Part shown: positions 13,216 through 61,374 of the stretch, piece by piece
How the letters are laid out: every line of letters begins with the position of its first letter
Position numbering within the stretch: position 1 is the stretch's first letter
Assembly (NCBI GenBank): GCA_963805975.1
Contig: CAWDVR010000002.1
Location: 1,056,001-1,120,000, forward strand
Length of the DNA stretch: 64,000 bases
Origin: an uncultured Acidobacteriota bacterium
GTDB lineage: Bacteria; Acidobacteriota; Thermoanaerobaculia; Multivoradales; SZUA-115
Reading direction: 5' to 3'
Position numbers and translations under genes: made by a program
The notes under the pieces: model-generated
What the model was told of the DNA's origin: nothing
Databases searched by the model: none
What the model saw: only the letters and a program-made list of their open reading frames with translations

Positions 13216-13218
13216 GGG

Positions 13219-27300: not shown

Positions 27301-27304
27301 GCCC

Positions 27305-30300: not shown

Positions 30301-30383
30301 CCGCAGGCCGAGCCGCAGCCGCCGGAGGCCGAGCCCGGCTCACCGCCGGCGAGCTCTTCCGTGGGCTCGATCACCGGTGGCAC
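27305..30383 (-). CDS. actB: ACIII ActB (non-catalytic molybdopterin-fold domain + Fe-S domain), copy 1; frameshifts near 28285, 28005 and 27750
   Basis: HWRSLEQL, Tat-like [33 protein letters not shown]; [41 protein letters not shown]. Confidence 0.9.
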
Positions 30384-31018
30384 CCCGTGCAGTCGAGAGG
30401 CGGTTGCAGGCCCTTGGCCTCCTTGATGAGGGCCGCGGATTGGAGTTGGTCGCGGGGCGGGCTCCAGTCCATGTTCGTCACCTCGTCAGCGGGTCGCAGG
30501 TAGGGGTCGGGGTTGCGGTGACAGTCCAGGCACCAGCTCATGGAGAGCGGCTCGGCCTGCGCCACCTCGTCCATCTGGTCGATGCGCCCGTGACAGGTGG
30601 CGCAGCCGACCCCGGCGCGCAGGTGGGGCCGGTGGTCGAAGAACGCGAAGCCGGGCAGGTTGTGCACCCGCACCCAGCGGATCGGGCGCCCGCTGGTGGC
30701 GCTGTCGCGCACCACCGCCAGCGTCGCGGCATCGCGCTTCACCACGCGGTGGCAGTTCATGCACACCTCGGTCGGCGGCACCACCGCGACCGGCGCGCGG
30801 TCCACCGTGGCGTGGCAGTAGAGGCAGTCGATCCCGAGGTCCCCGGCGTGGAGCTTGTGGCTGTAGGCGACCGGTTGCACCGGCTGGTAGCCGACGTCGG
30901 TGTAGCGCGGGGAGAAGAAGTACCAGACCCCGGCCACCGCCAGGCCACCGACGACGACGCTCGCCGCGGCGATGCGCAGCGGCAATTCGTTGGCCCAGCG
31001 CGGGAAGATCTGCGCCAC
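30371..31018 (-). CDS. actA: ACIII pentahaem cytochrome ActA, copy 1
   Basis: One TM helix, QPVAYSHKLH, five CxxCH (CLYCH, CMNCH, CATCH, CLDCH, CTGCH). Confidence 0.93.
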   Translation of the reverse strand: MAQIFPRWANELPLRIAAASVVVGGLAVAGVWYFFSPRYTDVGYQPVQPVAYSHKLHAGDLGIDCLYCHATVDRAPVAVVPPTEVCMNCHRVVKRDAATLAVVRDSATSGRPIRWVRVHNLPGFAFFDHRPHLRAGVGCATCHGRIDQMDEVAQAEPLSMSWCLDCHRNPDPYLRPADEVTNMDWSPPRDQLQSAALIKEAKGLQPPLDCTGCHR

Positions 31019-31128
31019 GCGCTAGCCCCACACCTGCTCGAAGAGCCGCTCGCGTGACCCCCTACAGACCATCCTCAAGGCACCTCCCCAACGAGAAGCG
31101 GCTCTTGTTCGATTCGTAAAGTCGGCGC

Positions 31129-31158
31129 AGTCTACCGTGGCGACTTCCGAGGGGTCAA
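31129..31158 (-). promoter_or_regulatory. Putative sigma70 promoter of the actA-actB-actE operon
   Basis: Minus strand TTGACC (31153-31158), N18, TAGACT (31129-31134). Confidence 0.45.
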
Positions 31159-31216
31159 GGCGATTCGGGGGCCCTCGGACGGCGCGTTCGAGGTTGCATG
31201 TACGATACGTCGGCCC

Positions 31217-32308
31217 GTGGTTGCTTCCCTCCTCGATCCGCAGCCTGCTCCCATGAAAGACCGCCCCGGCCTGCTGCTGGTGAACCTCGGAACGCCGGAT
31301 GCTCCGCGTCCGCGCGAGGTGCGGCGCTATCTGCGCGAGTTCCTGTCCGACCCTCGCGTGATGGACGTTCCGGCGCTCACGCGTTTTCTCGTGCTCGAGC
31401 TCCTCATCCTGCCGCGCCGGCCGCGCGCCTCGGCCGCGGCCTACGCCAGGATCTGGGGCCCCGAGGGCTCACCGCTCCTCGTGCATGGCCGCGCACTGAC
31501 GGAGAAGGTCCAGGCGCGCCTGGGGGACGCCGTGCAGGTGGAGCTCGCGATGCGCTACGGCAACCCCTCGATCGCCAGCGCGCTCGACCGCTTCGAACGA
31601 GCCGGGGTGAGCCGCCTGGTCGTCTTCCCGCTCTATCCGCAGTACAGCTCCGCCGCCACCGGCTCCACGATCGAGCACGTGCTGCGGCTCGCGGGAGGGC
31701 GCTGGAACACGCCCTACCTCCAGGTCGTGCCGCCGTTCTACGACCACCCCGCCTACCTGGAAGCTCGCGCCGAGGTAGCGCGGCCATTTCTCGCGCCGCT
31801 GCCCGAGCGCGTCTTCATGAGCTTCCACGGCCTGCCCGAGCGCCAGATTCGGAAGAGCGATCCCACCGGTGGCCATTGCCTGGCACGCCCCGACTGCTGT
31901 GCCGAGGTCGGGGCGAGGAACCGCTCCTGCTATCGCGCGCAGTGCCACGCCGCGGCACGATTGCTGGCGGGGCGGCTCGCGATCCCCGCGGAGCGCGTCG
32001 TCGTCTGCTTCCAGTCCCGCCTGGGGCGCACGCCGTGGCTCACCCCGCAGACCGACGAGGTGCTGGCAGCCGAGGCCCGACGGGGCGTGCGTAGGGCCGT
32101 GATCATCCCGGCGTTCGTGGCCGACTGCCTGGAGACCCTCGAGGAATTGAGCATCCGCGGCGCCGAGATCTGGCGTGAGAACGGCGGCGAAACGTTGACC
32201 GTGGTGCCGGCGGTCAATGCCGGCGACCGCTTCGCCGAGGCGGTGATCGAGATCGCCGCCGAAAGCTCGACCTGGCTCGAGGCGGCGAGCGGAGCCTCGG
32301 CCTCCTGA
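31217..32308 (+). CDS. hemH: Ferrochelatase (protoporphyrin-type N-terminus); alternative start 31253
   Basis: LLVNLGTPD, YLREFLSDPRV, LYPQYS, SFHGLP, FQSRLG, FVADCLETLEEL. Confidence 0.95.
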   Translation: MVASLLDPQPAPMKDRPGLLLVNLGTPDAPRPREVRRYLREFLSDPRVMDVPALTRFLVLELLILPRRPRASAAAYARIWGPEGSPLLVHGRALTEKVQARLGDAVQVELAMRYGNPSIASALDRFERAGVSRLVVFPLYPQYSSAATGSTIEHVLRLAGGRWNTPYLQVVPPFYDHPAYLEARAEVARPFLAPLPERVFMSFHGLPERQIRKSDPTGGHCLARPDCCAEVGARNRSCYRAQCHAAARLLAGRLAIPAERVVVCFQSRLGRTPWLTPQTDEVLAAEARRGVRRAVIIPAFVADCLETLEELSIRGAEIWRENGGETLTVVPAVNAGDRFAEAVIEIAAESSTWLEAASGASAS

Positions 32309-32310
32309 CC

Positions 32311-33734
32311 ATGCCGCCGCGGGTGGCGATCGTGGGTGCAGGGATCGGTGGTCTCGCCGCCGCCCATCATCTGAGCTTCCTGGCTGCGGAGCGCGGCTGT
32401 GCGATCGAGATCGTGCTCCTCGAGGCGTCCGGGAGGCCGGGAGGAGCGCTGGCGACCGAGCTTGTCGAGGGTGCGCTCCTCGAGCGCGGCCCGGACACGC
32501 TGGTGACGCACAAGCCGGCGGGCCTCGCCCTCTGCGAGCGGCTGGGCCTGGGCGAGCGCATCGTCTTCCCGCCGCCGGGTCGCATCGACATTCTCGACCG
32601 TGGTCGCCTCCTGCCCGTGCCGGCGGGTTTTGCGCTGCTCGCTCCAACGCGCGCTCGGCCGCTCCTGTCGTCGCCGCTCCTGTCCTGGCGGGGCAGGCTG
32701 CGCGGCGTGCTCGAGCCTCTGGTGCCGGCCAGAGCCGACCTCGGTGACGAGAGCGTCGCCTCGTTCGTGCGCCGCAGGTTCGGCGCCGAGGTCTACGAGC
32801 GGCTCTCCGAGCCGATGGCGGGCGGGCTGTTCATGGCCGATACCGAAGAGCTGAGCCTCGCGGCCGGCTTCCCCCGCTTCGCCAGCCTCGAACGCGAACG
32901 CGGCCGGCTTCTCGGCGGATGGCGGGCGCCCGCAGTCTCCAGGGCCCACCGCCGCGACCCTCGCCGGCGGCCTCGGCCAGATCGTGGACGCCCTGGTCGA
33001 GCGGCTGCCGCCGGGCTCCCTGCGCCTGGGCCAGGCGGTACAAGGGCTCGTCCGGCAGCCCCGAGGCTTCGTGCTGAAGATGGCCGAGGGTCCCGCGCTC
33101 GCCGCGGAAGCGGTGCTGGTCGCCATCCCGGCGCACGCGGCGGCGCCGCTCTTTTCCGAGCTGGACCCGCAGCTCGCCGGCGAGCTGGCCCGGATCTCCT
33201 ACGCCTCCTGCGTGACGGTGAACCTCGCATGGCCTCGGCAGGCCGTGAAACGCCTGCCCCAAGGCCACGGCTTTTTCGTTCCCCGCACCGCGGGCCTGCC
33301 GGTGGTGGCGGCGAGCTTCGTGAGCGTCAAGTTCCCCGAGCGGGTGCCGGTGGACCAGATCGTGGTCCGGGTGTTCCTCGGGCGGAGCGCTTCACCCGGA
33401 GGTCTCCGGCCGCTCGGACGCCGAGCTGGTCGAGGCCTCGACGAGCACCCTCGCGCCGCTCCTCGGGTTGCGGGAGCCGCCTTCCTGGAGCCGCGTCTGG
33501 CGCCACCCGCTGTCGATGCCACAGCGGGTCGTGGGGCATCCGGCGCTCGTGGCGCGCGTCACCGCGCGGCTGGATGCACATCCCGGCCTCGAATTCGCGG
33601 GCGGCCCGCTCGGCGCCTACGGCCTGCCCGATTCGATCGCCGCGGGCGAGGCGGCGGCGGAGCGCCTGCTCGACTGGGTCGCGGCTCGCAGCCGGGGCGC
33701 AACCTTCCGAGATTCCCGGATAGTGCCGTCATGA
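32311..33734 (+). CDS. hemY: HemY-type protoporphyrinogen oxidase (frameshifts near 32950 and 33385)
   Basis: IVGAGIGGLAAA, ERGPD, DESVASFVRRRFG, SVKFPER, MPQ..VGH, GLPDSI. Confidence 0.85.
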
Positions 33735-42098: not shown

Positions 42099-42189
42099 CT
42101 GCGCTCGCGAGTCGCCCCGAGGTGGTACGGAGCTCGTGGGCGAAGCGCGCATCTTGACGGAGCTACGGATAATCCGTAGTCTGACGAAG

Positions 42190-42477
42190 GTGGAATACGA
42201 GTGGGATACCACGAAGGCCGCCGAGAATCTACGTAGGCATGGGGTCGATTTCGTGGAAGCCATCGCGGCTCTTGAGGACCCGCATCGCTTCGAGACGATG
42301 GACACCCGCTCGGTCTACAGCGAGGAAAGGATGCAGGTTCTCGGCATGAGCGCTGACGGCATCTTATTCGTGATACCGACGATGCGCGGCAACGAGCGGT
42401 GCCGCATTATTTCGACCCGGAGGGCCACGCGCCATGAAGCAGACCGGTACTACGCGGGTGATCGTGAAGCTTGGTGA
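42190..42477 (+). CDS. BrnT-family toxin
   Basis: YEWDTTKAAENLRRHGVDF..EER..G..RIISTRRATRHE. Confidence 0.85.
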   Translation: MEYEWDTTKAAENLRRHGVDFVEAIAALEDPHRFETMDTRSVYSEERMQVLGMSADGILFVIPTMRGNERCRIISTRRATRHEADRYYAGDREAW

Positions 42478-42805
42478 ACCCCTATCGCGCGGCGAAACCG
42501 ACTGGGCACGGGTGAAGGCGATGACCGATGAAGAGATCCTGGCAGCAGCGCTCTCCGACCCCGATGCTCAGCCTCTCACCTCGGAGGAACTGGCGAGGAT
42601 GCGGCGGGTCTCCCCTGCCAAGGTGCTGCGGCAACGGCTCGGGATGACCCAGGTCGAGTTTGCCGCTGAGTTCGGGATACCGGTGAGCACGCTGCGGGAC
42701 TGGGAACAGCGCCGGACCACTCCGGATGCGCCGGCTCGTTCGTTGCTGCGAGCCATCGAGCGTGAGCCCGAGACCATGAGGCGGCTGCTGGCCCAGGTAG
42801 CCTGA
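42434..42805 (+). CDS. Antitoxin with a C-terminal XRE-type HTH
   Basis: TDWARVKAMTDEEI, LGMTQVEFA..IPVSTLRDWEQRR; overlaps the toxin gene. Confidence 0.82.
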   Translation: MKQTGTTRVIVKLGEPLSRGETDWARVKAMTDEEILAAALSDPDAQPLTSEELARMRRVSPAKVLRQRLGMTQVEFAAEFGIPVSTLRDWEQRRTTPDAPARSLLRAIEREPETMRRLLAQVA

Positions 42806-43000
42806 GCCAGCGAGGGTCGCCGGGCGACTGTCGTCACGGGCCGGGCGACGCATGGCTTGCCGAGGCCCCCGATGACGATTCGGGCATCGCACGCGCCCTG
42901 GGCGACATTGCCCGCACCAGCCGAACAGATCCATCGAGCGGCCCACCCTGCGCTAAACTCCACAAGAACCAGCAGCATAGCCAGCACGGGGAGGCCCGCG

Positions 43001-46000
43001 ATGCCGTTCGAGGCCCGCTCTCTGGAGTTTTTCCATACCCACTCGCCGCGACGCTGGCCTTGGGCCGCCGCTTTCTTGTCGGCGGCCGCCCTCGCCCTGC
43101 TGCTCCTCCCCGCTTTCGAGGTTCAGACCCAGACGGCCGACCCGCCTTGCGACCTCTACAGCCCGGAGCCGGTGCCGGCGAGCTTCGTGGGATGTGCCGA
43201 TCTGCAAGCGAAGGTGGAGGACACGGCCGCCTTCATGGGCCAGGATGGGTTCGATCTCGCGGGCTACGAGGGCGTGCTCGGCGAGTTCTTCGACAACTAC
43301 TGCCACCGCAACGCCGCTTCCGGCTGGGTGCGCGACAAGCGGGTGCGCGACACCGGTCCGTACGTGGCGGTGTCGCAGCCGGGCGGCACCTGGAGCTCAC
43401 CGCGCGCCTACGGCACCCACCTGCCGGTGGTGATCTGGTACAACCCGAAGATGATCGAGTGGCTGCGGCAGAACCGGCCGCACGAAGGAGACGCGCCCGC
43501 CGCGCCCGCGCCCATCCCGGATGGTGCGGTGATGGTGAAGGAGATGTTCCCGGCGCCGGCGGCGCGCTGCGACCGCTACCCGCCCGAGCACCTGACGGTG
43601 CCTGCCTCGACGGGCGTGGCCTTCATGATCCGCGACGCGGCCAACGCCCAGGACGGCTGGTTCTGGGGCGCCTGGTGGCAGGGGTTCACCCCGGATTGGC
43701 CGCCGCAGGGCCGCGGGCTGGCGGCGATGGGCTTCGGGCTCTACTGTCTCAACTGCCACGCCTCGGCGAAGGACAACTCCACCTTCGCCGACCTCGCCAA
43801 CGTGGCCGGCGAGCCCGGCGAGCCCAACGTCTACCTGTCGCAGAACTTCCTCTTCGAAAACGCTATCGCCCCCCAGGAGGAGCTGGGCCGCCACCGCACC
43901 GTGGTGGACACCACCGACGACCCGCCCCGCGAGCAGGCGCCGCTCTCGAGCTACAACCCCGCCTTCCTGGCGCGCTTCCCCACGACGACTCCACCAGTGC
44001 AGAGCGCCATCACCTCGCTCCCGTCCCAGACCTACGACCACGTGTGGGTGCCCGGTGGAGGGCCCACCGTGGCGAGCCAGTTCGTCACCTCGGACCAGTG
44101 CATCGGCTGCCATGACGCCGGCTCCACGGGCCTGCAATTCGACATGACCGAGCCCTCGCCCAAGGCGAAGGCGCTGCTCAACCTTTCGCCCTACGCCACC
44201 TGGCGCACCTCGCCCATGGGCCTGGGCGGGCGGGACCCGATCTTCCTCGCCCAGCTGGCGAGCGAGACGGAGACCTTCCACCCCCAGCATGCGGCGATGG
44301 TGCAGAACATCTGCTTCGGCTGCCACGGAGTCCAGGGGCAGCGCCAGCTCGGCATCGACCACTTCGAGAAAACTGGTGTCTGCGTCCCGTTCGACCGCGC
44401 CATGGTCGACGCCGTGCCCTATCCGGCCGCCGCGGCCCACAACCCCGGGCTGGCCTTCGCCCGCTACGGCGCGCTGGCTCGCGACGGCATCGCCTGCTCG
44501 GCCTGCCATCACATGGCGCTGACGCCGGCCGAGATCGAGCGGGTGAAGGACGCGCCGCAGAACCACTGCGTCGAGGAGCGCCAGGAGCTGCTCAACCCGG
44601 AGAACAAGGGCTTCGCCCGCACCTTCACCGGCAGCTTCTTCGTCGGCCCGCCGGGCGAGCTCTACGGCCCGTTCACCGAGCCCCAGCAGAAGCCCATGGA
44701 GCACGCGCTCGACATCCAGCCGATCCACAACACGGCGGTCAAGAGCTCCGAGCTCTGCGGCACCTGCCACACCGTGCACCTGCCCATCTTCGGCGCCGGC
44801 GGCAAGCAACTGGGCTCGACCTACGAGCAGACCACCTATCCGGAATGGGCGATGAGCGCCTACCGCACCGGCGCACTGGCCGACGGCTCGCCGCTGCCGT
44901 CCGGCGTCGGCAGCCTGGCGCAGTCCTGCCAGGGCTGCCACATGAAGTCTTCGGACGGGAAGACCGGGCTCTACCAGAGCAAGATCGCGAGCATCCAGGA
45001 GAAGAGCAACTTCCCGGCCACGGAGAACACGCTGCCGGCAGCGGAGATCGACCTCTCCCCCCGACCCGGCTTCGCCCGCCACACGCTGGTGGGGCTGAAC
45101 GTCTTTTTCAACGAGATGGCGCAGCAGTTCCCGGACGTGCTGGGCATCCCGACGCAGGACCCGATGATGGGCTCGCTCGGCCTCGACCCGCTGCTCGCCA
45201 CCGAGCAGGCGATGCTCCAGCAAGCCGCAGAGCAAACTGCGACCGTGGCCGTGAGCGAGGTGCGCCTCGCCGGCCGCAAGCTCTCCGCCCGGGTCACGGT
45301 CGACAATCTCGTCGGCCACCGCTTCCCCTCGGGCGTCGGCTTCCGCCGCGCCTTCCTCGAGGTCGCGGTGCTGGACGCCGCGGGCCAGGTGCTCTGGGCC
45401 TCGGGGCGCACGGACGGCGCCGGCACGCTGGTGGATCAGAACGGCCAGGCCCTCGCCGGCGAGATGCTGTGGCAGAGCGACTGCTCCGCGCTCCTTCCCG
45501 GCACCGCCCACCAGCCGCACTACCAGGTGGTGAGGCGCCAGGACCAGGCGCAGATCTACCAGGAGCTCTCGCTCTCGCCGGCACCGGTGCCGGACCCGCG
45601 CTGCGGGCGACACCCGGTTCCGGGCGGCGCCATCACCACCAGCTTCCTCTCGATCTGCGGCCCGCTCAAGGACAACCGCCTGCTGCCGGATGGTTTCCTG
45701 GGGGATCGCGAGCGGCTGGCGATCGCTCGCGCCCTGGGGGCCGGCCACGAGCTGGCGGAAGAGACCGGGCCGTTCGCGGTGGGCGACGACCCGGACTACA
45801 GGAGCGGCGGCGGCGGAGACTCGCTGCGCTACGAAGCGGACCTCGCCGAGGTGGCTGGCACCCCGGTCTACGTGCAGGCGACGCTCTATTACCAGGCCAT
45901 CCCGCCCTTCTATCTGCAAGACCGCTTCTGCACCTCACGAAGCGGCGACACCGAGCGCCTCTACTACCTCGCCGGGCATCTCGACCTCGCCAAGAGCCCG

Positions 46001-46084
46001 ATGGAGAGCTGGAAGCTCACGGTGGCGAGCAGCGGCCGCGTGGTGATCGGGCCGGCGGCGGAGGCGGTGCAGGCGGCGAGGTAG
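43001..46084 (+). CDS. Exported multihaem cytochrome: N-terminal cytochrome P460-like domain + five further CxxCH + C-terminal beta domain
   Basis: Signal peptide; WYNP, PDGAVMVKE, FMIRD..GWFW, CLNCH; then CIGCH, CFGCH, CSACH, CGTCH, CQGCH; GHRFPSG. Confidence 0.85.
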   Translation: MPFEARSLEFFHTHSPRRWPWAAAFLSAAALALLLLPAFEVQTQTADPPCDLYSPEPVPASFVGCADLQAKVEDTAAFMGQDGFDLAGYEGVLGEFFDNYCHRNAASGWVRDKRVRDTGPYVAVSQPGGTWSSPRAYGTHLPVVIWYNPKMIEWLRQNRPHEGDAPAAPAPIPDGAVMVKEMFPAPAARCDRYPPEHLTVPASTGVAFMIRDAANAQDGWFWGAWWQGFTPDWPPQGRGLAAMGFGLYCLNCHASAKDNSTFADLANVAGEPGEPNVYLSQNFLFENAIAPQEELGRHRTVVDTTDDPPREQAPLSSYNPAFLARFPTTTPPVQSAITSLPSQTYDHVWVPGGGPTVASQFVTSDQCIGCHDAGSTGLQFDMTEPSPKAKALLNLSPYATWRTSPMGLGGRDPIFLAQLASETETFHPQHAAMVQNICFGCHGVQGQRQLGIDHFEKTGVCVPFDRAMVDAVPYPAAAAHNPGLAFARYGALARDGIACSACHHMALTPAEIERVKDAPQNHCVEERQELLNPENKGFARTFTGSFFVGPPGELYGPFTEPQQKPMEHALDIQPIHNTAVKSSELCGTCHTVHLPIFGAGGKQLGSTYEQTTYPEWAMSAYRTGALADGSPLPSGVGSLAQSCQGCHMKSSDGKTGLYQSKIASIQEKSNFPATENTLPAAEIDLSPRPGFARHTLVGLNVFFNEMAQQFPDVLGIPTQDPMMGSLGLDPLLATEQAMLQQAAEQTATVAVSEVRLAGRKLSARVTVDNLVGHRFPSGVGFRRAFLEVAVLDAAGQVLWASGRTDGAGTLVDQNGQALAGEMLWQSDCSALLPGTAHQPHYQVVRRQDQAQIYQELSLSPAPVPDPRCGRHPVPGGAITTSFLSICGPLKDNRLLPDGFLGDRERLAIARALGAGHELAEETGPFAVGDDPDYRSGGGGDSLRYEADLAEVAGTPVYVQATLYYQAIPPFYLQDRFCTSRSGDTERLYYLAGHLDLAKSPMESWKLTVASSGRVVIGPAAEAVQAAR

Positions 46085-47799: not shown

Positions 47800-47819
47800 C
47801 TTGTGACGCTTGTCACAAG
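47800..47819. promoter_or_regulatory. CRP/FNR-family (or Rex-like) operator upstream of the second ACIII operon
   Basis: CTTGTGAC-GCTT-GTCACAAG, containing TGTGA-N6-TCACA. Confidence 0.7.
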
Positions 47820-47911
47820 CGCCTTGTGGGAGAGCTGGGGGCTACGTTATCCTCTCGCCGGTTCCCACAGGCCGGCAGGCCCATAGAATCTCTAGCCGAG
47901 GCCCCTTGACG

Positions 47912-48562
47912 ATGGCCCAGGTATTCCATCGCAGCACGAACACGATCGCCAAGGCGACGATCTATGGCGGTGTGGTTTTTGCGGCCTTCGCGGGCTGGCT
48001 GCTCCTGGCCCTGGCGCGCTCCCCTTACGTCACCCGCCAGGGGGTGGTGCGGCAGCAGCCGGTGCCCTTCAGCCACGACCACCATACGGCCGGCCTCGGC
48101 ATCGACTGCCGCTACTGCCACACCTCGGTCGAGGACTCGTCCTTCGCCGGCCTCCCCCCCACGCAGACCTGCATCGGCTGCCACAAGCTGATCTGGACCA
48201 ACGCCGAGCTCCTGGAGCCGGTGCGGGCGAGCTGGCGGACCGGCGAGCCGATTGTCTGGCGGCGCATCCACGACCTGCCGGACTACGTGTACTTCGACCA
48301 TTCGATCCACGTCGCCAAGGGCGTCTCCTGCTACACCTGCCACGGGGCGGTGAACGAGATGCCGCTCATGTACCAGAAGTCTTCGCTGCTGATGGAGTGG
48401 TGCCTGGACTGTCATCGCGACCCGGCGAAGTTCGTGCGCCCCAGGGAAGAGGTGGTGAACTTTCGCTGGCGGCCCGAGGAGCCCCAGGAAGTGCTGGGGG
48501 CGCGGCTGGTCGAGGAGTACGACATCCACAGCATGACCAACTGCTCGACCTGCCACCGTTGA
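47912..48562 (+). CDS. actA: ACIII ActA, copy 2
   Basis: MAQVFH, QPVPFSHDHH, five CxxCH. Confidence 0.94.
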   Translation: MAQVFHRSTNTIAKATIYGGVVFAAFAGWLLLALARSPYVTRQGVVRQQPVPFSHDHHTAGLGIDCRYCHTSVEDSSFAGLPPTQTCIGCHKLIWTNAELLEPVRASWRTGEPIVWRRIHDLPDYVYFDHSIHVAKGVSCYTCHGAVNEMPLMYQKSSLLMEWCLDCHRDPAKFVRPREEVVNFRWRPEEPQEVLGARLVEEYDIHSMTNCSTCHR

Positions 48563-48600
48563 TATGTCACCGTTGAAAGAAAACTGGGTCACCGCCGAGC

Positions 48601-51710
<3,110 letters not shown>

Positions 51711-51711
<1 letters not shown>

Positions 51712-53114
51712 TGACGCCCGGCGAGAACGTCAGCGTGCTCGACAAGCCGCCGTTCATCGAGCCCGGCCACACTCCGGGAACGGTCACCGACAAGATCAGC
51801 TCGATCGTCCTCGGCAAGATCCCGATGTGGTGGTACGGGGTCTTCGGCGTCGGCTTCATCCTGCTCACGGTGCTGCTCCAGGCGCTTGGCTACCTGATCC
51901 TCAAGGGCACCGGCATCTGGGGCGTGAACATCCCGGTGGGCTGGGGCTGGGCGATCATCAACTTCGTCTGGTGGATCGGCATCGGCCATGCGGGCACGCT
52001 GATCTCGGCGATCCTGCTGCTGCTGCGCCAGCAATGGCGCACCTCGATCAACCGTTTCGCCGAGGCGATGACCCTCTTCGCCGTGGCCTGCGCCGGCATC
52101 TTCCCGCTGATCCACACCGGCCGGCCGTGGCTCGGCTACTGGCTGCTGCCACTGCCCAACGTGATGAGCGTGTGGCCCAACTTCAGGAGCCCGCTGGTCT
52201 GGGACGTGTTCGCGGTCTCGACCTACGCCACAGTCTCGATGCTCTTCTGGTACGTGGGCCTGGTGCCGGACCTCGCCACGCTGCGCGACAAGGCGAAGCA
52301 CAAGGCCGCCAAGATCGCCTACGGCGTCTTTGCCATGGGCTGGCGCGGCTCGGCCGTGCAGTGGCACAACTACGAGTCGGCCTACCTGCTGCTCGCCGGC
52401 CTCGCCACACCGCTGGTGCTCTCCGTGCACACGGTGGTGAGCTTCGACTTCGCGGTCGGCCAGCTTCCCGGCTGGCACGCCACGATCTTCCCGCCCTACT
52501 TTGTCGCCGGCGCCATCTACGCCGGCTTCGCCATGGTGCTGACGCTGGCGCTGCCGCTGCGCTACGCCTTCGGCTTGCACGACTTCATCACCGACCGCCA
52601 CCTGCAGAACATGGCCAAGGTGATGCTCGCCACCGGCCTGATCGTGGTCTACGGTTATTTCATCGAGATCTTCGTCGGCTGGTACGGCGGCCATCCCTAC
52701 GAGCAGTTCCTGATCAAGAACCGCATCACCGGCCCCTACTGGCCGGCCTGGTGGGCCCTGATCCTGTGCAACGGCATCGTGCCGCAGCTCCTGTGGATCA
52801 AGAAGCTGCGCACCAACCCGTGGCTCCTGTTCGGCATCTCGATGGTGGTCAACGTCGGCATGTGGCTCGAGCGCTACGTGATCGTGGTCACCAGCCTGAC
52901 GCGCGACTTCCTGGTCTCCTCCTGGGGCACTTACCACGGCACCAAGTGGGACGTGATGACGTTCATCGGCACCATCGGCCTGTTCATCTTCCTGTTCTCG
53001 CTGTTCATCCGCTTCCTGCCGCTGATCTCGATCTTCGAGATGCGCACCATCGTGCCGGAGGCCGAGCGGGTGCTGAAGCACCGGCCGGAAGAGCCCGAGG
53101 GGACGGGACCATGA
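51711..53114 (+). CDS. actC: ACIII ActC, copy 2
   Basis: [39 protein letters not shown]. Confidence 0.94.
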
Positions 53115-53656
53115 AGACCGAAGACGCGTTCCAGCTCTACGGCGTGATGGCGGAGTTCGAGACCCCCGAGGGCCTTCTCGCCGGCATCCGCGCCAGCCGC
53201 CGGGCGGGCTACGAGGATCTCGACGCCTACACTCCCTACCCGATCGAAGCGGTGTGGGAGGAGATCGGCCACCATCACTCGAAGGTGCCGCTCTTGGTGC
53301 TGATCGGGGGCATCCTGGGCGGTCTTGGCGGCTTCGCCCTCCAGTACTGGACCTCGGTGATCGACTATCCGCTCAACGTCGGCGGCCGGCCCTTCAACAG
53401 TTGGCCGGCGTTCATCGTGCCGACCTTCGAGTGCACGATCCTCGCCGCCGCGGCGTCGGCGGTCTTCGGCATGTTCTTCCTCAACGGGCTTCCCAGCCCG
53501 TACCACCCGGTGTTCAACGTGCCGCGCTTCGCCGCGGCGTCCCGCGACGCCTACTTCCTGGTGATCAAGGCCACGGACGACAAGTTCGACCTGGACGCCG
53601 TGCGCCGGTTCCTCGGCGGCCAGCCGGTGAGAGAGGTATCCGACGTTGAGTATTGA
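53111..53656 (+). CDS. actD: ACIII ActD, copy 2
   Basis: [22 protein letters not shown]. Confidence 0.92.
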
Positions 53657-54308
53657 GAACCCGAGGGTCGGGGCGAGGGTGCTGGCGGGCGTGGCTCTGC
53701 TGCTCGCCACCGGCGGTTGCCGCCAAGACATGCACGACGCGCCGCGCTACGACGCGCTCGAGAAGTCGAGCTTCTACGCCGACGGCCGGTCGGCGCGGGA
53801 CCCGATGGCGGGCACCGTGGCGCGCGGCCACCTCAACGAGGACACGGTGCTCCTGACCGGCAGGACGCCGGACGGCAAGTTCGCCACCGCCGCGCCCATG
53901 CCGCTCGATCTCGCCCTGCTCCAGCGCGGCCAGGAACGCTTCAACATCTTCTGCTCGCCCTGCCACGACCGCGTGGGCACGGGCAACGGCATGATCGTGC
54001 GCCGCGGCTACAAGCAGCCGCAGACCTACCACAGCGACCGCCTGCGCGATCAGCCGCTGGGCTACTTCGTGGACGTGATGAGCAACGGCTTCGGCCAGAT
54101 GCCGAGCTACGCCCACCAGGTTCCGCCGAGGGACCGCTGGGCGATCGCCGCCTACATCCGGGCCTTGCAGTACTCGCAGAACGCCCGCCTCGCCGAGCTC
54201 TCGGCCGACGACCGGCAGCAGATCGCCGCCGCCGGGTCGCGGCCGGCCGGGGAGGCCGGCGCCGCGGCGCACGGCGGCGGCGGCGGCCACCACCAGGGGG
54301 AGCGATGA
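53646..54308 (+). CDS. actE: ACIII ActE, copy 2
   Basis: Lipobox GGCRQDM, CSPCH, DRWAIAAYIR. Confidence 0.92.
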   Translation: MSIENPRVGARVLAGVALLLATGGCRQDMHDAPRYDALEKSSFYADGRSARDPMAGTVARGHLNEDTVLLTGRTPDGKFATAAPMPLDLALLQRGQERFNIFCSPCHDRVGTGNGMIVRRGYKQPQTYHSDRLRDQPLGYFVDVMSNGFGQMPSYAHQVPPRDRWAIAAYIRALQYSQNARLAELSADDRQQIAAAGSRPAGEAGAAAHGGGGGHHQGER

Positions 54309-55558
54309 GCGAGCACGCGGTACCGCAGCCGATGGCGCACGGCGCCGCGAGGCCCCGGGTGGTGGCGCCCGCCAACTGGCGGAGCCTCTCCTGGACCGCG
54401 CCGGAAGCGATCGGCCGGCTCCAATCGCGCTCTTTCCTGGTGGGCGCGATCGGCCTCGCCCTGGCGGCCATCGGCCTGTTCTTCAATCGCCAGCACTTCT
54501 TCCAGTCCTATCTGGTGGGTTATCTCTATTGGCTGATCCTCGCCCTGGGCTGCCTCGGCATCCTGATGTTGCACCACACGTCGCGCGGCGCCTGGGGCCT
54601 GGTGGTGCGCCGCATCCTCGAGGCCGGTGCCCGCACCCTGCCCTGGATGCCGCTCCTCTTCCTGCCGGTGCTCCTGGGGATGCGGTACATCTTTCCCTGG
54701 CTGAATCCCGAGGTCGCGGCGGAGGAAGTGGTCCGCCACAAGGCGGCCTACCTGAACGCGCCGTTCTTCATCGCCCGCTACGTCTTCTACTTCGCCGTCT
54801 GGACCTTCCTCGCCTGGCGCCTGTCGAGGCTCTCGATCGAGCAGGATCGGCGGCCGGGAGACGATCAGCTCACGCGGCGCATGCAGGTGTACTCGGCGCC
54901 GGGCCTCCTCATTTTCGCCATCACCGTCAGCTTCGCCTCGTTCGACTGGCTGATGTCGCTCGACCCGCTCTGGGCCTCGACCATCTACGGCGTCTACGTG
55001 ATCGGTTGCGCCGGGCTCTCGGGCTTCGCGTTCGTGATCGCGGTCGCCTACTACCTCTCCCGCCAGTTACCGATGGCGAACGTCTTTGGCAGCCGCCACT
55101 TCCACGACTATGGCAACCTGATGATGGCCTTCATCATGTTGTGGGCCTACTTCTCCTTCTCGCAGTTCCTCATCATCTGGTCGGCCAACCTGCCAGAGGA
55201 GATCCCCTTCTACCTCAACCGCTCGCGCCACGGCTGGCAGTTCCTGAGCCTCGCGCTGATCATCTGTCACTGGGCGATCCCGTTCTTCCTGCTGCTCTCC
55301 AAGGGCCGTAAGCGCGATCCCTCGCGCCTGGTGAAGGTGGCGCTGTGGGTGCTCGCGATGCGCTTCGTGGACCTCTACTGGCAGACGGCGCCGATGCCGA
55401 CCTTCCACCCGGAGAGCCTGCTGCCCCGCCTCGCGGACATCCCCGCGGTGGTGGGGATCGGTGGCATCTGGCTGGGGCTCTTCGCCCGCGAGCTGGGGAG
55501 CCGGCCGCTCCTGGCGGTCAACGCTCCCGATATGGAGGAGGCGCTCGGCGATGAATGA
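54305..55558 (+). CDS. actF: ACIII ActF, copy 2
   Basis: GAWGLVVRR, DWLMSLDP, FSQFLIIWSANLPEE. Confidence 0.92.
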   Translation: MSEHAVPQPMAHGAARPRVVAPANWRSLSWTAPEAIGRLQSRSFLVGAIGLALAAIGLFFNRQHFFQSYLVGYLYWLILALGCLGILMLHHTSRGAWGLVVRRILEAGARTLPWMPLLFLPVLLGMRYIFPWLNPEVAAEEVVRHKAAYLNAPFFIARYVFYFAVWTFLAWRLSRLSIEQDRRPGDDQLTRRMQVYSAPGLLIFAITVSFASFDWLMSLDPLWASTIYGVYVIGCAGLSGFAFVIAVAYYLSRQLPMANVFGSRHFHDYGNLMMAFIMLWAYFSFSQFLIIWSANLPEEIPFYLNRSRHGWQFLSLALIICHWAIPFFLLLSKGRKRDPSRLVKVALWVLAMRFVDLYWQTAPMPTFHPESLLPRLADIPAVVGIGGIWLGLFARELGSRPLLAVNAPDMEEALGDE

Positions 55559-56093
55559 GCTCAAGGACGCCAACCTCGACGCCGGTACTCAGGGTGCGGC
55601 GCCGCAGCCCGATCTCCATGCCGCCGGTCATCGCGGCGAGGGCGAGACCTTCGACCTCGAGATCGACGTCAAGTCCATCGCGGCCACCGGCGGCTGGCTG
55701 TTCGTGACCATCGCCGTCTCCATGGTCCTGATGTGGTTCCTGATCGTGGCCCTACGCAACTGGGAGCGAAAGGCCGACCCGCCGGCCTCGCCCGCCTTTG
55801 CGCAGGCGATCCAGGAACGGGTGAGCTTCGACCCCCCGGGGCCGCGCCTCCAGCCTTCACCGGCGAGCGACCTGCGGCCCGAGGCCGAGCTGACCGCCTT
55901 CCTCCACGAGCAGGACGAGGCGCTCGGCAGCTACGGCTGGGTGTCGAAGGAGGGCGGCATCGCCAGGATCCCGATCGCGCGGGCGATCGCGCTGCTGGCC
56001 GAGAAGGGCCTGCCCGCACCGCGGCCCACGGCCGAGGTCGTCACCTTCCCGCCGGTCGCCGAGCCCCACGCGGCGCCGGCACAGGGCCATTGA
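55551..56093 (+). CDS. actG: ActG-like single-TM subunit
   Basis: Position after actF; PPGPRLQ, SYGWV, RIPIARAI. Confidence 0.75.
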   Translation: MNELKDANLDAGTQGAAPQPDLHAAGHRGEGETFDLEIDVKSIAATGGWLFVTIAVSMVLMWFLIVALRNWERKADPPASPAFAQAIQERVSFDPPGPRLQPSPASDLRPEAELTAFLHEQDEALGSYGWVSKEGGIARIPIARAIALLAEKGLPAPRPTAEVVTFPPVAEPHAAPAQGH

Positions 56094-56109
56094 GAGTGCG
56101 ACGAGGCCC

Positions 56110-57003
56110 ATGGTGAGACCTGGAACCCTTCTCCTGGCGCGGCTCCTGCCGGCGTGCGCCGCCCTGGCCTGGTCCCTGGGCGCGGCTTCGCCGGCGCTCG
56201 CGCAGGCGACGGCCCAGCCCGCGCTCGGCGATCCGCTGGGAACGACCCCTTCGACCAAGATGCCCGACGAGTTCAAGGACGTGGGCTTCGACCAGCGCCT
56301 GGGCGAAGGTGTACCGTTCGACGGGGCATTCACCGACGAGGCCGGCCGGAGCGTGCGCCTGGGCGACTTCTTCGGCCAGCGCCCGGTGCTCCTGGTGCCG
56401 GTCTATTACGAGTGCCCGATGCTCTGCAGCCAGGTGATGAACGGGCTGGTGGCGGGCCTCGCCACGATCCCCTTCCTGCCCGGCAACGAGTACGAGGTGG
56501 TGGCGGTCTCTTTCGACCCCCGCGACACGGTCGAGGACGCCTTCAAGCGCAAGAACACGGTGCTCGGCCGCTTCGGCCACCGGGAGACGGCCGGCGGCTG
56601 GCACTTCCTCACCGGCTCTCCGGAGTCGATCCGCGCCTTCACCGACGCGATCGGCTTCCGCTACCGCTTCGACGAGAAGAAAGGCGAGTTCGCCCACACC
56701 GCCGGCGCCGTGCTGGCGACCCCCGAGGGCCGCATCTCCCGCTACTTCTTCGGCCTCGAGTTTCCCGGCCGGCACCTGCGGCTGGGCATCGTGGAAGCAT
56801 CGGCCGAGCGCATCGGGTCGGTGGCGGACCACGTGTTCCTCTACTGCTTCCGCTACGACCCGACGACGGGCCAGTACACCGCCCTGACTCTGAACATCGT
56901 CCGCCTGGCCGGCGGTCTAACCGTCGCCCTGCTCGCCGCCTGGCTCACCGTCACCCTGAGCCGGGAGCGGCGGCGCAACCGAACCTCTCTGGGGACCGCC
57001 TAG
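56110..57003 (+). CDS. SCO1/SenC copper chaperone
   Basis: YYECPMLC, WHFLTG, FAH. Confidence 0.9.
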   Translation: MVRPGTLLLARLLPACAALAWSLGAASPALAQATAQPALGDPLGTTPSTKMPDEFKDVGFDQRLGEGVPFDGAFTDEAGRSVRLGDFFGQRPVLLVPVYYECPMLCSQVMNGLVAGLATIPFLPGNEYEVVAVSFDPRDTVEDAFKRKNTVLGRFGHRETAGGWHFLTGSPESIRAFTDAIGFRYRFDEKKGEFAHTAGAVLATPEGRISRYFFGLEFPGRHLRLGIVEASAERIGSVADHVFLYCFRYDPTTGQYTALTLNIVRLAGGLTVALLAAWLTVTLSRERRRNRTSLGTA

Positions 57004-57004
57004 G

Positions 57005-57988
57005 ATGCCGCAATTCCCCTTGTTTCCCCAACAGGCCTCGACCGTGGCCGGCGAGGTCGACGCCCTGTACCTCGCCTGGGTGGCGATCAGCCTGTTCTTC
57101 ACGGTGCTCATCTTCGTGCTGGTGGTGTACTTCGCGGTGCGCTACAAGCGCCGCTCGCCGGGCGAGGTGGGAACCGAGGAGACCGCGCCGGCTTCGCTCG
57201 AGATCGTCTGGTCGGTGATCCCGCTCGCCATCTGCCTGGCGTTCTTCTTCTGGGGAACCAAGGTCTTCTTCACCCTGTCGCGCCCGCCCGCCGACGCCGT
57301 CGAGTACTTCGTCACCGGCAAGCAGTGGATGTGGAAGGTGCAGCACCCGAGCGGCGTGCGCGAGATCAACCATCTGCACGTGCCGGTGGGCGTACCGATC
57401 CGGCTGACCATGACCTCCGAGGACACCATCCACTCCTTCTATCTGCCGGCGTTCCGCGTCAAGCAGGACGTGCTCCCCGGTCGCTACTCGACGGTCTGGT
57501 TCGAGGCCACCAAGCCCGGCACCTACTACCTCTTCTGCGCCGAGTACTGCGGCGCCGAGCACTCGCTGATGGGCGGCTGGGTCACCGTCATGGAGCCCAG
57601 GGCCTACGAGGAGTGGCTGGCCGGAGGGCCCTCCACCCTGCCGCCGGTCGAGATGGGCAAGGAGCTCTTCGGGAGCCTCGCCTGCAACACCTGCCACATG
57701 GCCGGCGACACGCAGCGCGGCCCGAAGCTCGACGGCGTCTTCGACAGCGAGGTGACGCTCTCGACCGGGCGCGTGGTGGTGGCCGACGAGAACTACCTGC
57801 GCGAGTCGATCCTCAACCCCGGCACCAAGCTGGTGGCCGGCTTCGAGCCGCTGATGCCGACCTTCCAGGGCCAGGTCTCCGAAGAGCAGTTGAACGCCTT
57901 GATCTCCTACATCAAATCGCTTCCCAAGACGGTGCCCGCCGGGCAGGCTGCCGTCGCGCCCCAGGCCGCGAGCGGCGCCGTCCACTGA
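57005..57988 (+). CDS. coxB: caa3 oxidase subunit II with fused cytochrome c
   Basis: LEIVW, CAEYCGAEHSLM, CNTCH..MP. Confidence 0.95.
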   Translation: MPQFPLFPQQASTVAGEVDALYLAWVAISLFFTVLIFVLVVYFAVRYKRRSPGEVGTEETAPASLEIVWSVIPLAICLAFFFWGTKVFFTLSRPPADAVEYFVTGKQWMWKVQHPSGVREINHLHVPVGVPIRLTMTSEDTIHSFYLPAFRVKQDVLPGRYSTVWFEATKPGTYYLFCAEYCGAEHSLMGGWVTVMEPRAYEEWLAGGPSTLPPVEMGKELFGSLACNTCHMAGDTQRGPKLDGVFDSEVTLSTGRVVVADENYLRESILNPGTKLVAGFEPLMPTFQGQVSEEQLNALISYIKSLPKTVPAGQAAVAPQAASGAVH

Positions 57989-58001
57989 GGAAGATTGAGC
58001 C

Positions 58002-59687
58002 ATGAGCACTGAATCGTTCCTGACGGCACCGGAGCCCGGGGTCGAAACGACCGCCACCGAGCTGCCGCGCCGCCATTTCATGAACAGCAAGTACGGCATC
58101 CTGTCGTGGCTGCTGACCCAGGACCACAAGCGGATCGCCATCCTCTACCTGATCTCGGTCTCGGCTTTTTTCGCGCTCGGCGGCGTGATGGCGATGCTGA
58201 TCCGCCTCGAGCTCCTCACCCCGGCGGGCGACCTGTTCCAGGGCGACACCTACAACCGGGTGTTCACCATGCACGGCGTCTTGATGGTGTTCTTCTTCCT
58301 GGTGCCGGTGATCCCGGCGATCCTCGGCAACTTCCTGCTGCCGATCATGATCGGGGCCAAGGACCTGGCGTTCCCCAAGATCAACCTGGCGAGCTGGTAT
58401 CTCTACACCATCGGCGGCGCGTTCACTCTCTACGCCATGCTGCACGGCGGCGTCGACACCGGCTGGACCTTCTACACGCCGTTCTCCTCCGCCTACTCGA
58501 ACACCGGCGTGCTGGCGACGGCGGTCGGCGTCTTCATCGCCGGCTTCTCTTCGATCTTCACCGGTCTCAACTTCATCGTTACCGTGCACCGCATGCGGGC
58601 GCCGGGGCTGACCTGGTTCCGCCTGCCGCTCTTCGTGTGGGCCAACTACGCGACCAGTCTGGTGATCATGCTCGGCACGCCGGTGATCGCGGTGACCCTC
58701 TTCCTGCTGGCCCTCGAGCGCGGCCTCGGCCTGGGCATCTTCAACCCGGCCCTGGGCGGCGACCCGGTGCTCTTCCAGCACCTCTTCTGGTTCTACTCGC
58801 ACCCCGCGGTCTACATCATGGTGCTGCCGGCGATGGGCGTGGTCAGCGAGCTGGTGGCGGCCTTCGCCAGAAAGCCCGTTTTCGGCTACAAGGTGGTGGC
58901 CTTCGCCTCGATCGCCATCGCCGTTCTCGGCTTCCTGGTCTGGGGCCACCACATGTTCGTCTCCGGCCAGTCGGTGTACGCGGCGACGGTCTTCTCCGTG
59001 CTCTCGATGCTGGTGGCGATCCCCTCGGCGGTCAAGGTCTTCAACTGGACGACGACGCTCTACGAGGGCTCGGTCTCCTACGAGACGCCGATGCTCTACG
59101 GGCTGGGGTTCATCGGCCTGTTCACCATCGGCGGCCTGACCGGCGTGATGTTGGCGACGCTCGGCATCGACGTCCACGTGCACGACACCTACTTCATCGT
59201 CGCCCACTTCCACTACGTGATGGTGGGCGGCACGCTGATGGGCTATCTCGGCGGCCTCCACTACTGGTGGCCGAAGATGTTCGGCCGCATGTATCCGGCG
59301 TTCTGGTCGAAGCTGTCGGCGCTCTGCGTGTTCATCGGCTTCAACTTGACGTTCTTCCCGCAGTTCATCGTCGGGTACATGGGCATGCCGCGCCGCTACT
59401 GGACCTATCCGGCCGAGTTCCAGGTGCTGAACGTGCTCTCCTCGGCCGGTGCCTCGATCCTCGGCTTCGGCCTCCTGCTGCCGGCCTGCTACCTCTTGTG
59501 GTCGCTCGCCAAGGGCCGGGTGGCGGGCAACAACCCGTGGGGCGCAGTGGGGCTCGAGTGGGAGACCACCTCGCCGCCGCCCACCGAGAACTTCACCTCC
59601 ACCCCCGAGGTGGCCGGCGGCCCGTACGACTACATCAACAAGGACAAGATCTTCGCCTTCCCGCACGAGGAGGCACGCGTTGTCTAG
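58002..59687 (+). CDS. coxA: caa3 oxidase subunit I, A2 type
   Basis: [10 protein letters not shown] (YS motif), WGHHMF, IPSAVK (K-channel Lys present), AHFHY. Confidence 0.95.
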
Positions 59688-60450
59688 CCCGCACTCGCAG
59701 GCCCTCGACTCCCACGCGGCTCGCCCGCTGACGGAGCACGGCGATCACCCTCCAGGGCTCGCGCACCACTTCGAGTCCTTCGCGCAGCAGCGCGAGTCCT
59801 CGACGCTCGGCATGTGGCTCTTCCTGGTCACCGAGATCATGTTCTTCGGCGGCATGTTCCTGGCCTACACGCTCTACCGCCGGGAGTTCCCGCTCGCCTT
59901 CCAGGCCGGCAGCCACTCGCTGAGCATCGGGCTCGGCGTGTTCAACACCGCGGTCCTGATCGGCTCCTCGCTCACCATGGCGCTGGCGGTGCGCGCAGCG
60001 CAGCTCTCCTGGCGCAAGGGGATCGTCCTGTTCCTGGTCCTTACCATCCTCCTGGGCGGCATCTTCTTGGGCGTCAAGGTGATCGAGTACTCGCAGAAGG
60101 GCGTCCCCATCCCGGTCGTCGGCCCCTGGGTGCTCTCCCAAACCCCCGAGCCCCACCACATCTACGTGCCCGGCGACCGGTTCCACTTCGAGGGCGAGGG
60201 CAAGTTCCAGGGCGCGGCCGAGAACAACGTGCAGATGTTCTTCTCGCTCTATTTCGCGATGACCGGCACGCACGCGCTGCACATGATCATCGGCATCGCG
60301 ATCATGCTCTTCATGCTGCGGCCGGCATGGCGCGGCAGGTGGAACACCGACAACCACAACTTCGTGGAAGGCTTCGGCCTCTACTGGCATTTCGTCGACA
60401 TCGTCTGGATCTTCCTCTTTCCGTTGCTGTATCTCATCGGCCGGCACTAG
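59680..60450 (+). CDS. coxC: Oxidase subunit III (TTG start)
   Basis: [29 protein letters not shown]. Confidence 0.92.
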
Positions 60451-60465
60451 GCAGGAGAGGCGCTC

Positions 60466-60765
60466 ATGTCCGTCCACGTGTCCCCGGTGCGCCTTTACCT
60501 GGCGATCTTCTTCGCGCTGCTGGTAGGCACCGCCCTCACGGTGTGGGCCGCGTTCATGGAGTTCGGCCCCTTCAACAACATCGTGGCGATGGCGATCGCC
60601 GTGGCGAAGGCGACCCTCGTGGTGCTGTTCTTCATGCACGTCAAGTACTCGACCCGGCTGACCAAGCTGGTCGTCGCCGGTGGCTTCCTCTGGCTGGGGC
60701 TGCTGTTCCTCTTCACGCTCGCCGACTACATGAACCGCGGCTGGCTGGGCGTCGCCGGCAAGTAA
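60466..60765 (+). CDS. coxD: caa3 subunit IV
   Basis: KATLVVLFFMHVKY. Confidence 0.9.
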   Translation: MSVHVSPVRLYLAIFFALLVGTALTVWAAFMEFGPFNNIVAMAIAVAKATLVVLFFMHVKYSTRLTKLVVAGGFLWLGLLFLFTLADYMNRGWLGVAGK

Positions 60766-60810
60766 CGCCCGACCCGCCGGCCCTGAGGCCGGCCCACGGT
60801 CTCAGCTCTC

Positions 60811-61374
60811 ATGCGCCGCAACGAGACCCTCCTCGACCTTCTCCTCGAGATCCAGATGCTGGACCGCGTGCCGCGGATGGGCTACGCACTGCGCGGCGTG
60901 GTGGACGGCGAGAGTGTCACCGAGCACTCCTGGCACGTGCTCTTCCTGGTCTGGTCGCTGGCGCCGCGCGTCCCCGAGGTGGACCCGCACCGGGCCGTCG
61001 AGATGGCCCTGATCCACGACTTGGCCGAGCTTCGGGTCGGGGACCTGCCGCGCACCGCCTCGCGCTACTTCCCGGCCGGCGCCAAGCGGGCCGCCGAGAC
61101 CGCCGCCATGGCCGAGCTGGCGGCCCCTTTGCCCGAGCGCGCGCAGGAGCTCTTCGCCGACTACGAACAGGGGACGAGCCCGGAGGCGAAGCTGGTGAAG
61201 GCCTGCGACAAGCTGCAACTGATGCTCAAGGTGGCGGTCTACCAGCACTGGGGCGCGGGCGGCCTCGGGGAGTTCTGGGAGAACCCGGACAACTTTCCTG
61301 ACGGCGGTTTCCCGGCGGTACGCGAGCTGTTCGAGGAGCTCAGGCGCCGCCGGGACGAGGGGGCGAAGTCATGA
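60811..61374 (+). CDS. HD-domain hydrolase (YfbR/HDDC2-like)
   Basis: PRMGY, ESVTEHS, IHDLAE..GD, CDKL. Confidence 0.85.
   Translation: MRRNETLLDLLLEIQMLDRVPRMGYALRGVVDGESVTEHSWHVLFLVWSLAPRVPEVDPHRAVEMALIHDLAELRVGDLPRTASRYFPAGAKRAAETAAMAELAAPLPERAQELFADYEQGTSPEAKLVKACDKLQLMLKVAVYQHWGAGGLGEFWENPDNFPDGGFPAVRELFEELRRRRDEGAKS

Follow-up and report, generated by a model that had tools for sequence, protein, structure and literature searches.

According to a 2025 review, active cytochromes P460 require both a cross-link between haem and protein and a precisely positioned carboxylate (PMC11928373). Hydroxylamine bound at the P460 haem of hydroxylamine oxidoreductase (HAO) is contacted by an Asp and by a His close to it (PMC6457333). 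The PHC family groups the 5ZE8 fold, Geobacter ExtKL, and truncated-haemoglobin fusions of cable bacteria (PMC11976967), with PtdA as a further relative (bioRxiv 2023.11.21.568154). Its member MccSep (the same protein as ExtKL) is a polysulfide reductase in which haem 2 has Cys239 as a ligand beside a selenocysteine; haems 1, 3, 4, and 5 are bis-His, and haem 1 is the proposed point of electron entry (bioRxiv 2025.11.18.688581; PMC13510729). For the cable-bacteria fusions (lPHCtX), a role in linking the haem chain with reactions of small molecules has been proposed (PMC11976967). Here we describe a gene that joins a P460-type domain to a PHC module in a single six-haem chain of 1,027 residues (protein P0001), which we tentatively read as a two-site oxidoreductase. 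The gene lies at positions 43001–46084 of a 64,000-nucleotide stretch (the window) from an uncultured Acidobacteriota bacterium of the class Thermoanaerobaculia (GCA_963805975.1, contig CAWDVR010000002.1, positions 1,056,001–1,120,000). All features of the gene are given in window coordinates and lie on the + strand.

The open reading frame (ORF) at 43001–46084 contains no internal stops over its 1,027 codons, has a third-position GC content (GC3) of 0.93, and finds full-length homologues. A Shine–Dalgarno-like GGAGG (42990–42994) sits six bases 5' of the ATG. Basic residues followed by a hydrophobic segment at about residues 19–38 (43001–43114) read as a likely export signal by which the protein is likely secreted, and the N termini of homologues are similar. 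There are six CxxCH motifs, beginning at residues 249, 367, 438, 499, 586, and 643, against 0.014 expected from composition; the last five follow the P460 domain, as the original prediction, made from the sequence alone, had noted. An AlphaFold model of residues 44–1027 (pLDDT 92.9, pTM 0.93) predicts that the P460 domain and the five-haem module form one rigid chain, connected by a linker (43820–44065) within which residues 282–295 have low model confidence. The host genome (5.36 Mb, 96% complete) encodes two cytochrome c assembly proteins, and its sole P460 match is the fusion protein itself. Among databases, NCBIfam assigns no family to P0001, the ESM Atlas returns matches only in clusters that are unnamed or automatically named, and a plasmid search gives two records, labelled hypothetical protein and cytochrome c family protein. 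Ten cysteines outside the haem motifs (43148–45931) are common to the 120 closest homologues; most are not kept family-wide, and they are likely to form structural disulfides.

In the model, residues ~87–273 (43259–43819) match the cytochrome P460/c'-beta fold. A structure search against 48,161 chains placed P460 or c'-beta structures at ranks 2–6 (Z 9.2, 7.9, 7.1, 6.9, and 6.5), each aligning over 124–140 residues. Z values of 6.5–9.2 are middling by themselves, so that the fold assignment needs the Pfam and profile matches as well. Pfam Cytochrome_P460 (PF16694) matches residues 144–259 with 34 bits against a cut-off of 27, and a profile built from 120 homologues finds the Methylococcus capsulatus P460 (6HIU), pairing Lys180 with the Lys of GAILVK and Ala207 with the Asp of ADFMVKD. 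The register is unchanged (Lys70 and Glu96) when a Nitrosomonas orthologue, itself anchored to 2JE2, is used for the alignment, Ala207 then falling on the Glu of GLEASVKD. The original prediction had proposed an N-terminal P460 domain that keeps the cross-linking Lys and carries Ala in place of the catalytic Glu, and these alignments agree with it on each point; the Nitrosomonas motifs it cited are present in the 2JE2 and 8GAR alignments, and the P460 beta-sheet fold that it named as a check is found in the model.

Conservation in this domain was counted over 299 homologues, left from 317 at 90% identity. Lys180 (codon AAG, 43538–43540), at the P460 cross-link position (Lys70/78/106), is kept in 293, and the CxxCH of the P460-fold haem (C249–H253, 43745–43759) in 298. 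Ala207 (43619–43621) occupies the position of the distal Glu96/Asp102, which is Ala in 184 sequences and Thr in 82. A nearly invariant histidine, His140 (43418–43420; 294/299, the other five being gaps), lies at or beside the position of the capping Phe, which in the P460 of Nitrosomonas sp. AL212 is located right over the iron. It is a candidate distal base or sixth ligand: hhalign puts it on the capping Phe at low column confidence, and a one-residue register shift decides whether the capping position falls on His140 or Thr139. Asp112 and Arg116 (43334–43348; 289/299 and 287/299) are candidate partners in the distal pocket. We considered equating Arg116 with Arg43 of M. capsulatus and dropped this assignment because the first strand of the P460 domain is not reliably alignable.

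The original prediction noted that an Ala-for-Glu variant is inactive. The AL212 protein bears out that precedent; inactivity of the present protein does not follow from it, because His140, Asp112, and Arg116 are nearly invariant. By analogy with HAO, a His/Asp base at the P460 haem is plausible. Lys180 alone likewise proves no cross-link, because cross-link formation needs peroxide as well as pocket residues (PMC10411619; PMC6427953). Three homologues, P0262, P0263, and P0268, have Ala in place of the cross-link Lys and keep the His, P0262 with Glu at the carboxylate position; they are natural controls.

The remainder of the protein, residues 356–1016 (44066–46048), corresponds to a PHC module, in which a pentahaem cap is combined with an immunoglobulin (Ig)-like beta-sandwich. 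It superposes on Thermochromatium tepidum (Tt) cytochrome c552 (5ZE8) with a Z score of 19.3 and a root-mean-square deviation of 3.0 Å over 352 of 385 residues. For the sequence comparison, we aligned 16 Tt-type orthologues, one of them anchored to 5ZE8 and MccSep, and took the haem ligands of 5ZE8 from the orthologues and MccSep. Global hhalign of the fusion family against this set gives a probability of 99.7% with all five motifs in register; local pairwise hhalign of the two alignments (A3 and A4) aligned the Ig loop alone. The five CxxCH motifs are those of haem I (44099–44113), the proposed entry haem in MccSep; haem II (44312–44326), at the position of the MccSep catalytic haem; haem III (44495–44509); haem IV (44756–44770); and haem V (44927–44941). 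An arm at residues 660–690 (44978–45070) appears in the alignment as an insertion absent from Tt-c552-type proteins.

The four distal His ligands of MccSep and Tt c552 (haems 1, 3, 4, and 5) are not all present in the fusion family. His694 (45080–45082) and His773, each conserved in 299/299 and each a predicted ligand, are the only invariant non-motif histidines of the module, His694 lying in a region that aligns with the relatives and His773 in the GHxxPSGVGFRR loop (45317–45349). Two methionines fill the other two places. Met406 (295/299) replaces the His ligand of the WxxSxH motif and stands close to Arg411 (299/299), which lies in the loop of the substrate-binding Arg83 of MccSep (44216–44233). 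Met566 (44696–44698; 299/299), a His in relatives, was assigned by exclusion as the only invariant ligand candidate between haems III and IV, and by analogy with the ligand order of NrfA would ligate haem I.

Where MccSep has Cys239 as its haem II ligand, the fusion family has Glu609–Gln610 (44825–44830; 298/299 and 299/299). The register here may be off by one residue, since hhalign places the Cys239 equivalent at Glu609 and the spacing to an invariant Thr and Glu places it at Gln610. The selenocysteine position of MccSep is occupied by Val779, and across the 299 homologues it is Val in 292, Thr in four, Ala in three, and Cys in none; Arg783, in the same loop, is conserved in all 299. With Cys replaced by Glu–Gln and selenocysteine or Cys by Val, a polysulfide reductase of the MccSep type was rejected as a reading, and NF040886 does not match P0001. 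Because the Cys ligand is replaced by the conserved Glu609–Gln610, haem II is probably a second active site and not only part of a wire; judged from the alignment, it is probably open, and the conserved Glu, Gln, and Arg residues next to it would form a pocket resembling those of peroxidases. The five-haem wire of the original prediction thus stands as far as five fused haems are concerned; the module is of the PHC type and its haem II is probably catalytic.

Stand-alone relatives of the module occur as well. The host genome encodes a large PHC paralogue, P0270 (C1:1220699–1222600; L102:6700–8601), that is 23% identical and lacks a P460 domain. Its residue at the 406 position is Met, it contains the RDP motif, and Glu aligns with the ligand of haem II. 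The T. tepidum c552-type PHC motif matched 62 of the 121 genomes in the family of genome G061, and several of the 20 loci read (L112–L131) adjoin other multihaem genes.

The fusion is widespread. At E 1e-20, 2,592 of 7,996 scored candidates belong to the family, and 399 clusters at 50% identity pass E 1e-30. Among the 150 cluster representatives listed, 105 are 820–1,250 residues long and every one of these has six CxxCH motifs, as do three longer ones; the other 42 were dropped as short, and the 19 of them that we read (541–819 residues) look like fragments. Six motifs are likewise found in 118/120 close homologues and in 89/90 ORFs from the loci. Short forms with the P460 domain are rare (22 matches among 1,412 short candidates), and the ten that we read look truncated or frameshifted; the P460 domain of this family nearly always occurs fused. 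The locus listing, which covers at least 596 of 604 stretches, spans Acidobacteriota, Alpha- and Gammaproteobacteria, Bacteroidetes, Planctomycetota, Chloroflexota, and others, and cultured hosts include Skermanella, Bosea, Mesorhizobium, Devosia, and Nisaea, the Skermanella orthologue being WP_051511319.1. The closest of the matches listed is a Thermoanaerobaculia record (L021) at 87% identity, and 27 of 61 related genomes, the host counted, carry a family match. Database names of members are either hypothetical or P460-domain-containing. Three long members, P0242, P0251, and P0255, have Cys-rich inserts and a C-terminal hydrophobic tail with a basic cluster. The tail presumably resembles a surface-sorting signal of the IPTL-CTERM kind, with no such match in NCBIfam, and hints at a cell-surface location.

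We propose, as a tentative reading, that the protein is a secreted, self-contained oxidoreductase with two active sites, likely oxidising hydroxylamine at one and reducing peroxide or O2 on board at the other. After export, the haems would be attached by the cytochrome c maturation system of the host, and Lys180 would cross-link the P460 haem. The role of this haem would be to oxidise a small nitrogen compound, hydroxylamine being the likeliest, with His140, perhaps together with Asp112, serving as the proton acceptor in place of Glu, like the Asp/His pair of HAO. Electrons would then pass from the P460 haem through haems I, III, and IV to haem II, a path that would include two His/Met haems. 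Haem II, lacking its Cys ligand, would bind a second substrate beside Glu609, Gln610, and Arg411 and reduce it, most likely peroxide or O2. The identities of the substrates are the weakest step of this proposal. Among the 80 loci kept for neighbourhood counts (flanks of up to ~8 kb, many loci being shorter), immediate neighbours are mostly singletons and the most recurrent neighbour clusters reach 10, 9, and 6 loci; the lack of a recurrent partner gene fits a self-contained enzyme. A bolder version, in which the family is a new P460 class with an HAO-like His/Asp base, acting as a single-chain hydroxylamine oxidase or dismutase with its own electron sink and two active sites connected by a chain of haems, we regard as unlikely.

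The packing of the two domains was addressed by mean-field covariation; the alignment was split at random into two halves, and inter-domain pairs were ranked by whichever of their two scores was smaller. Pairs within domains are plausible and the inter-domain signal is weak. The P460 domain pairs with segment 550–579 (six hits, 2.1 expected) and segment 670–699 (five hits, 1.9 expected), the top inter-domain pair being Ala266–Glu675. Both segments covary with the haem I region, and the inserted arm 660–690 covaries with the haem I motif (Ser375–Ser664 is the top pair) and the Met566 helix and, weakly, with the P460 domain. These pairs weakly place the P460 domain on segments 550–579 and 670–699, a placement that is suggestive only.

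Several points weigh against the two-site proposal. The distal carboxylate required for hydroxylamine oxidation is absent (the position is acidic in 3/299), the cross-linked Ala131 P460 from Nitrosomonas sp. AL212 is inactive, and in Nitrosomonas europaea P460 even a Glu-to-Asp change abolishes activity (PMC11928373). In the P460 mutants Phe41Ala and Arg44Ala, the Lys is kept and the cross-link is largely lost (PMC10411619); the Arg44 position is Val in the fusion family or, in another register, variable. It is also plausible that His140 is an iron ligand that closes the P460 site. The open site at haem II is argued from the alignment alone. Covariation between the domains lies close to noise level and was read in windows picked post hoc, and the two halves are phylogenetically non-independent. 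No hydroxylamine source was identified in the host, and the absence of conserved neighbours does not prove self-containment, because a soluble electron partner may be encoded elsewhere.

Two rival schemes each have a single catalytic haem. If the P460 haem alone turned hydroxylamine into NO or N2O, the five other haems would be an exit wire and the protein a single-chain analogue of HAO, as the original prediction had suggested, with electrons going to a soluble cytochrome c and to the terminal oxidases. Conserved Lys180 and His140 accord with this, as do the two cytochrome oxidase subunit I genes of the host (its two PF00115 matches, both oxidase subunits inside the window). Exchange of a His ligand for Met usually raises the haem potential, and two such exchanges suit electron exit from a P460 haem, a haem type with potentials of -300 to -424 mV (PMC11928373). 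In PHC proteins, four haems (I, III, IV, and V) superimpose on the haem chain of a nanowire (PMC11976967). However, Glu609, Gln610, Arg411, and Arg783 are conserved like ligands, although a passive wire would have no use for them; the neighbourhood lacks a conserved redox partner, the distal carboxylate is absent, and we consider the scheme doubtful. We are equally doubtful that the roles are reversed, with haem II as the sole active site, working as a peroxidase or as a reductase of sulfur or nitrogen oxyanions, and the P460 haem as a non-catalytic carrier or NO binder capped or ligated by His140. Here the missing carboxylate is expected, inactive cross-linked P460s exist, His140 aligns with the residue directly above the iron in AL212 P460, the three homologues without Lys keep the His, Glu aligns with the haem II ligand in paralogue P0270, which has no P460 domain, and MccSep is itself a reductase. 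Yet a simple carrier would not obviously need Lys180 in 293/299 sequences along with Asp112 and Arg116, and both the Cys and the selenocysteine or Cys that MccSep needs for polysulfide reduction are gone.

The genomic position invites a further explanation, that the protein serves the neighbouring alternative complex III (ACIII)/cytochrome oxidase operon as an accessory subunit or as a redox/NO sensor. From the gene to actA downstream is ~1.7 kb, both have the same orientation, the window holds many genes for respiration and haem synthesis, and in L021 actA and actB are also found within the flank. Nevertheless, three unrelated ORFs and a promoter-like site (47862–47889, just 5' of the act genes; a consensus match only) intervene, a family scan of the protein found no signalling domain, and act genes occur in the flanks (up to ~8 kb, many loci being shorter) of only 1/80 family loci and in 0/19 stretches from the same family or order. 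The last result led us to reject an ACIII or oxidase link, and with it the connection to neighbouring respiratory complexes that the original prediction had thought possible; an accessory or sensor role is very improbable. A role in nitrogen-oxide respiration is argued against by the host genome, in which nosZ, nirK, and narG have no match over the cut-off and nrfA has no match.

Other features of the window surround the gene. Directly upstream is a BrnT-type toxin with a helix-turn-helix antitoxin (42136–42805); the same pair precedes actA in L021, and the stretch between a hydrolase gene and actA looks variable. Downstream, 47810–61736 holds ACIII-like pentahaem, 4Fe-4S, NrfD, and monohaem genes, then SCO, Cox2 with a c-haem, Cox1, Cox3, Cox4, and a small cytochrome c. 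A further respiratory cluster at 2418–10680 (+) combines NrfD with Cox1, Cox3, and Cox2, and 23315–31021 (-) holds a set of pentahaem, molybdopterin-oxidoreductase-like, 4Fe-4S, cytochrome bd subunit I-like, and monohaem genes. Three respiratory gene sets within 64 kb look unusual. Haem-synthesis-type genes (aminotransferase III, glutamyl-tRNA reductase, ferrochelatase, and flavin oxidoreductase) occur at 3–2362, 11893–13707, 19409–21589, and 31058–33720, together with three PCP_red ORFs, of which one encodes a radical SAM/SPASM protein and another also has a Usp domain.

The original prediction had also suggested a possibly undescribed N-oxide redox enzyme or sensor, and no description of a P460–multihaem fusion was found in the literature searched. 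None appears in the titles and abstract openings returned by full-text literature searches, a scope that lies outside subscription papers and supplements, among them those of the MccSep and cable-bacteria papers, which may list ligands or P460–PHC fusions. The words "fused," "fusion," and "domain" never occur in the main text of the 2025 P460 review (PMC11928373), PMC12758564 mentions P460 for HAO alone, and the available part of bioRxiv 2026.01.20.700514 discusses only the globin fusion. The P460–PHC combination, the His of the P460 pocket, and the Glu–Gln site at haem II appear to be undescribed; both modules are already known, and the fusion design has a precedent in the globin–PHC fusions. 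The family, thousands of proteins in which a P460 domain is hard-wired to a haem chain, bears on the redox partner of the small stand-alone P460s, on their role beyond nitrifiers and methanotrophs, and on the Ala-type members, to which no function is assigned. Substitution of His for Glu as the P460 base can be tested directly in it, as can the function of a PHC module once the Cys/selenocysteine chemistry of MccSep is lost. If hydroxylamine or NO is turned over, the family would be an unrecognised nitrogen-oxide enzyme of common heterotrophs; if the His/Asp-base reading is true, thousands of non-nitrifying bacteria of soil and water would produce or consume NO and N2O by a route that has gone unrecognised.

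The N-terminal domain shares its beta-sheet fold with cytochromes P460 (N. europaea 2JE3, M. capsulatus 6HIU, and AL212 6AMG; Z 6.9–7.9), as well as the Lys at the cross-link position and a CxxCH near the end of the domain, and it shares with the inactive AL212 protein the Ala at the carboxylate position. Known P460s are small monohaem homodimers, whereas here the domain is part of a 1,027-residue six-haem chain; in the former, Phe or Arg caps the iron, whereas the fusion family has a conserved His at or beside that position and no distal Glu or Asp. Cytochromes c'-beta (8BRK/7EAD, 6HIH, and 7S5O) have the same fold, give the domain its best score (Z 9.2, 8BRK), and likewise lack a distal carboxylate. 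In these proteins, however, Phe or Met replaces the cross-link Lys (PMC11928373, table 2), which the fusion family keeps in 293/299 along with conserved polar residues. The analogy to HAO is possibly functional, in that both would have an Asp/His pair at a catalytic haem that is cross-linked and electrically connected to other haems. HAO has eight haems, an inter-subunit Tyr cross-link, and a trimeric assembly, whereas the fusion has six CxxCH motifs in one chain. Homology to HAO was rejected, as sequence and structure searches with the fusion protein returned no HAO match; a PF13447 search gave no match in the host genome and none in any control genome either, and is hence uninformative.

With the PHC family (5ZE8, PtdA, and Geobacter sulfurreducens MccSep/ExtKL, 9WT8), the fusion shares five colinear CxxCH motifs, the helical cap and Ig-like sandwich, and the WxxSx[H/M] and GHxxP[ST]G motifs. 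It differs in the replacement of the haem II Cys by Glu–Gln, of selenocysteine or Cys by Val, and of two His ligands by Met, in its large insertions and N-terminal P460 domain, and in that no ptd or ext operon context was seen. The family scan of the fusion protein gave no match to the globin family. Cable-bacteria lPHCtX nevertheless has the same design, a ligand-binding haem domain attached to a large PHC module (PMC11976967). There, the attached domain is a b-haem globin, reported in the available text only from cable bacteria, whereas in the fusion family it is a c-haem P460 fold found across many phyla.

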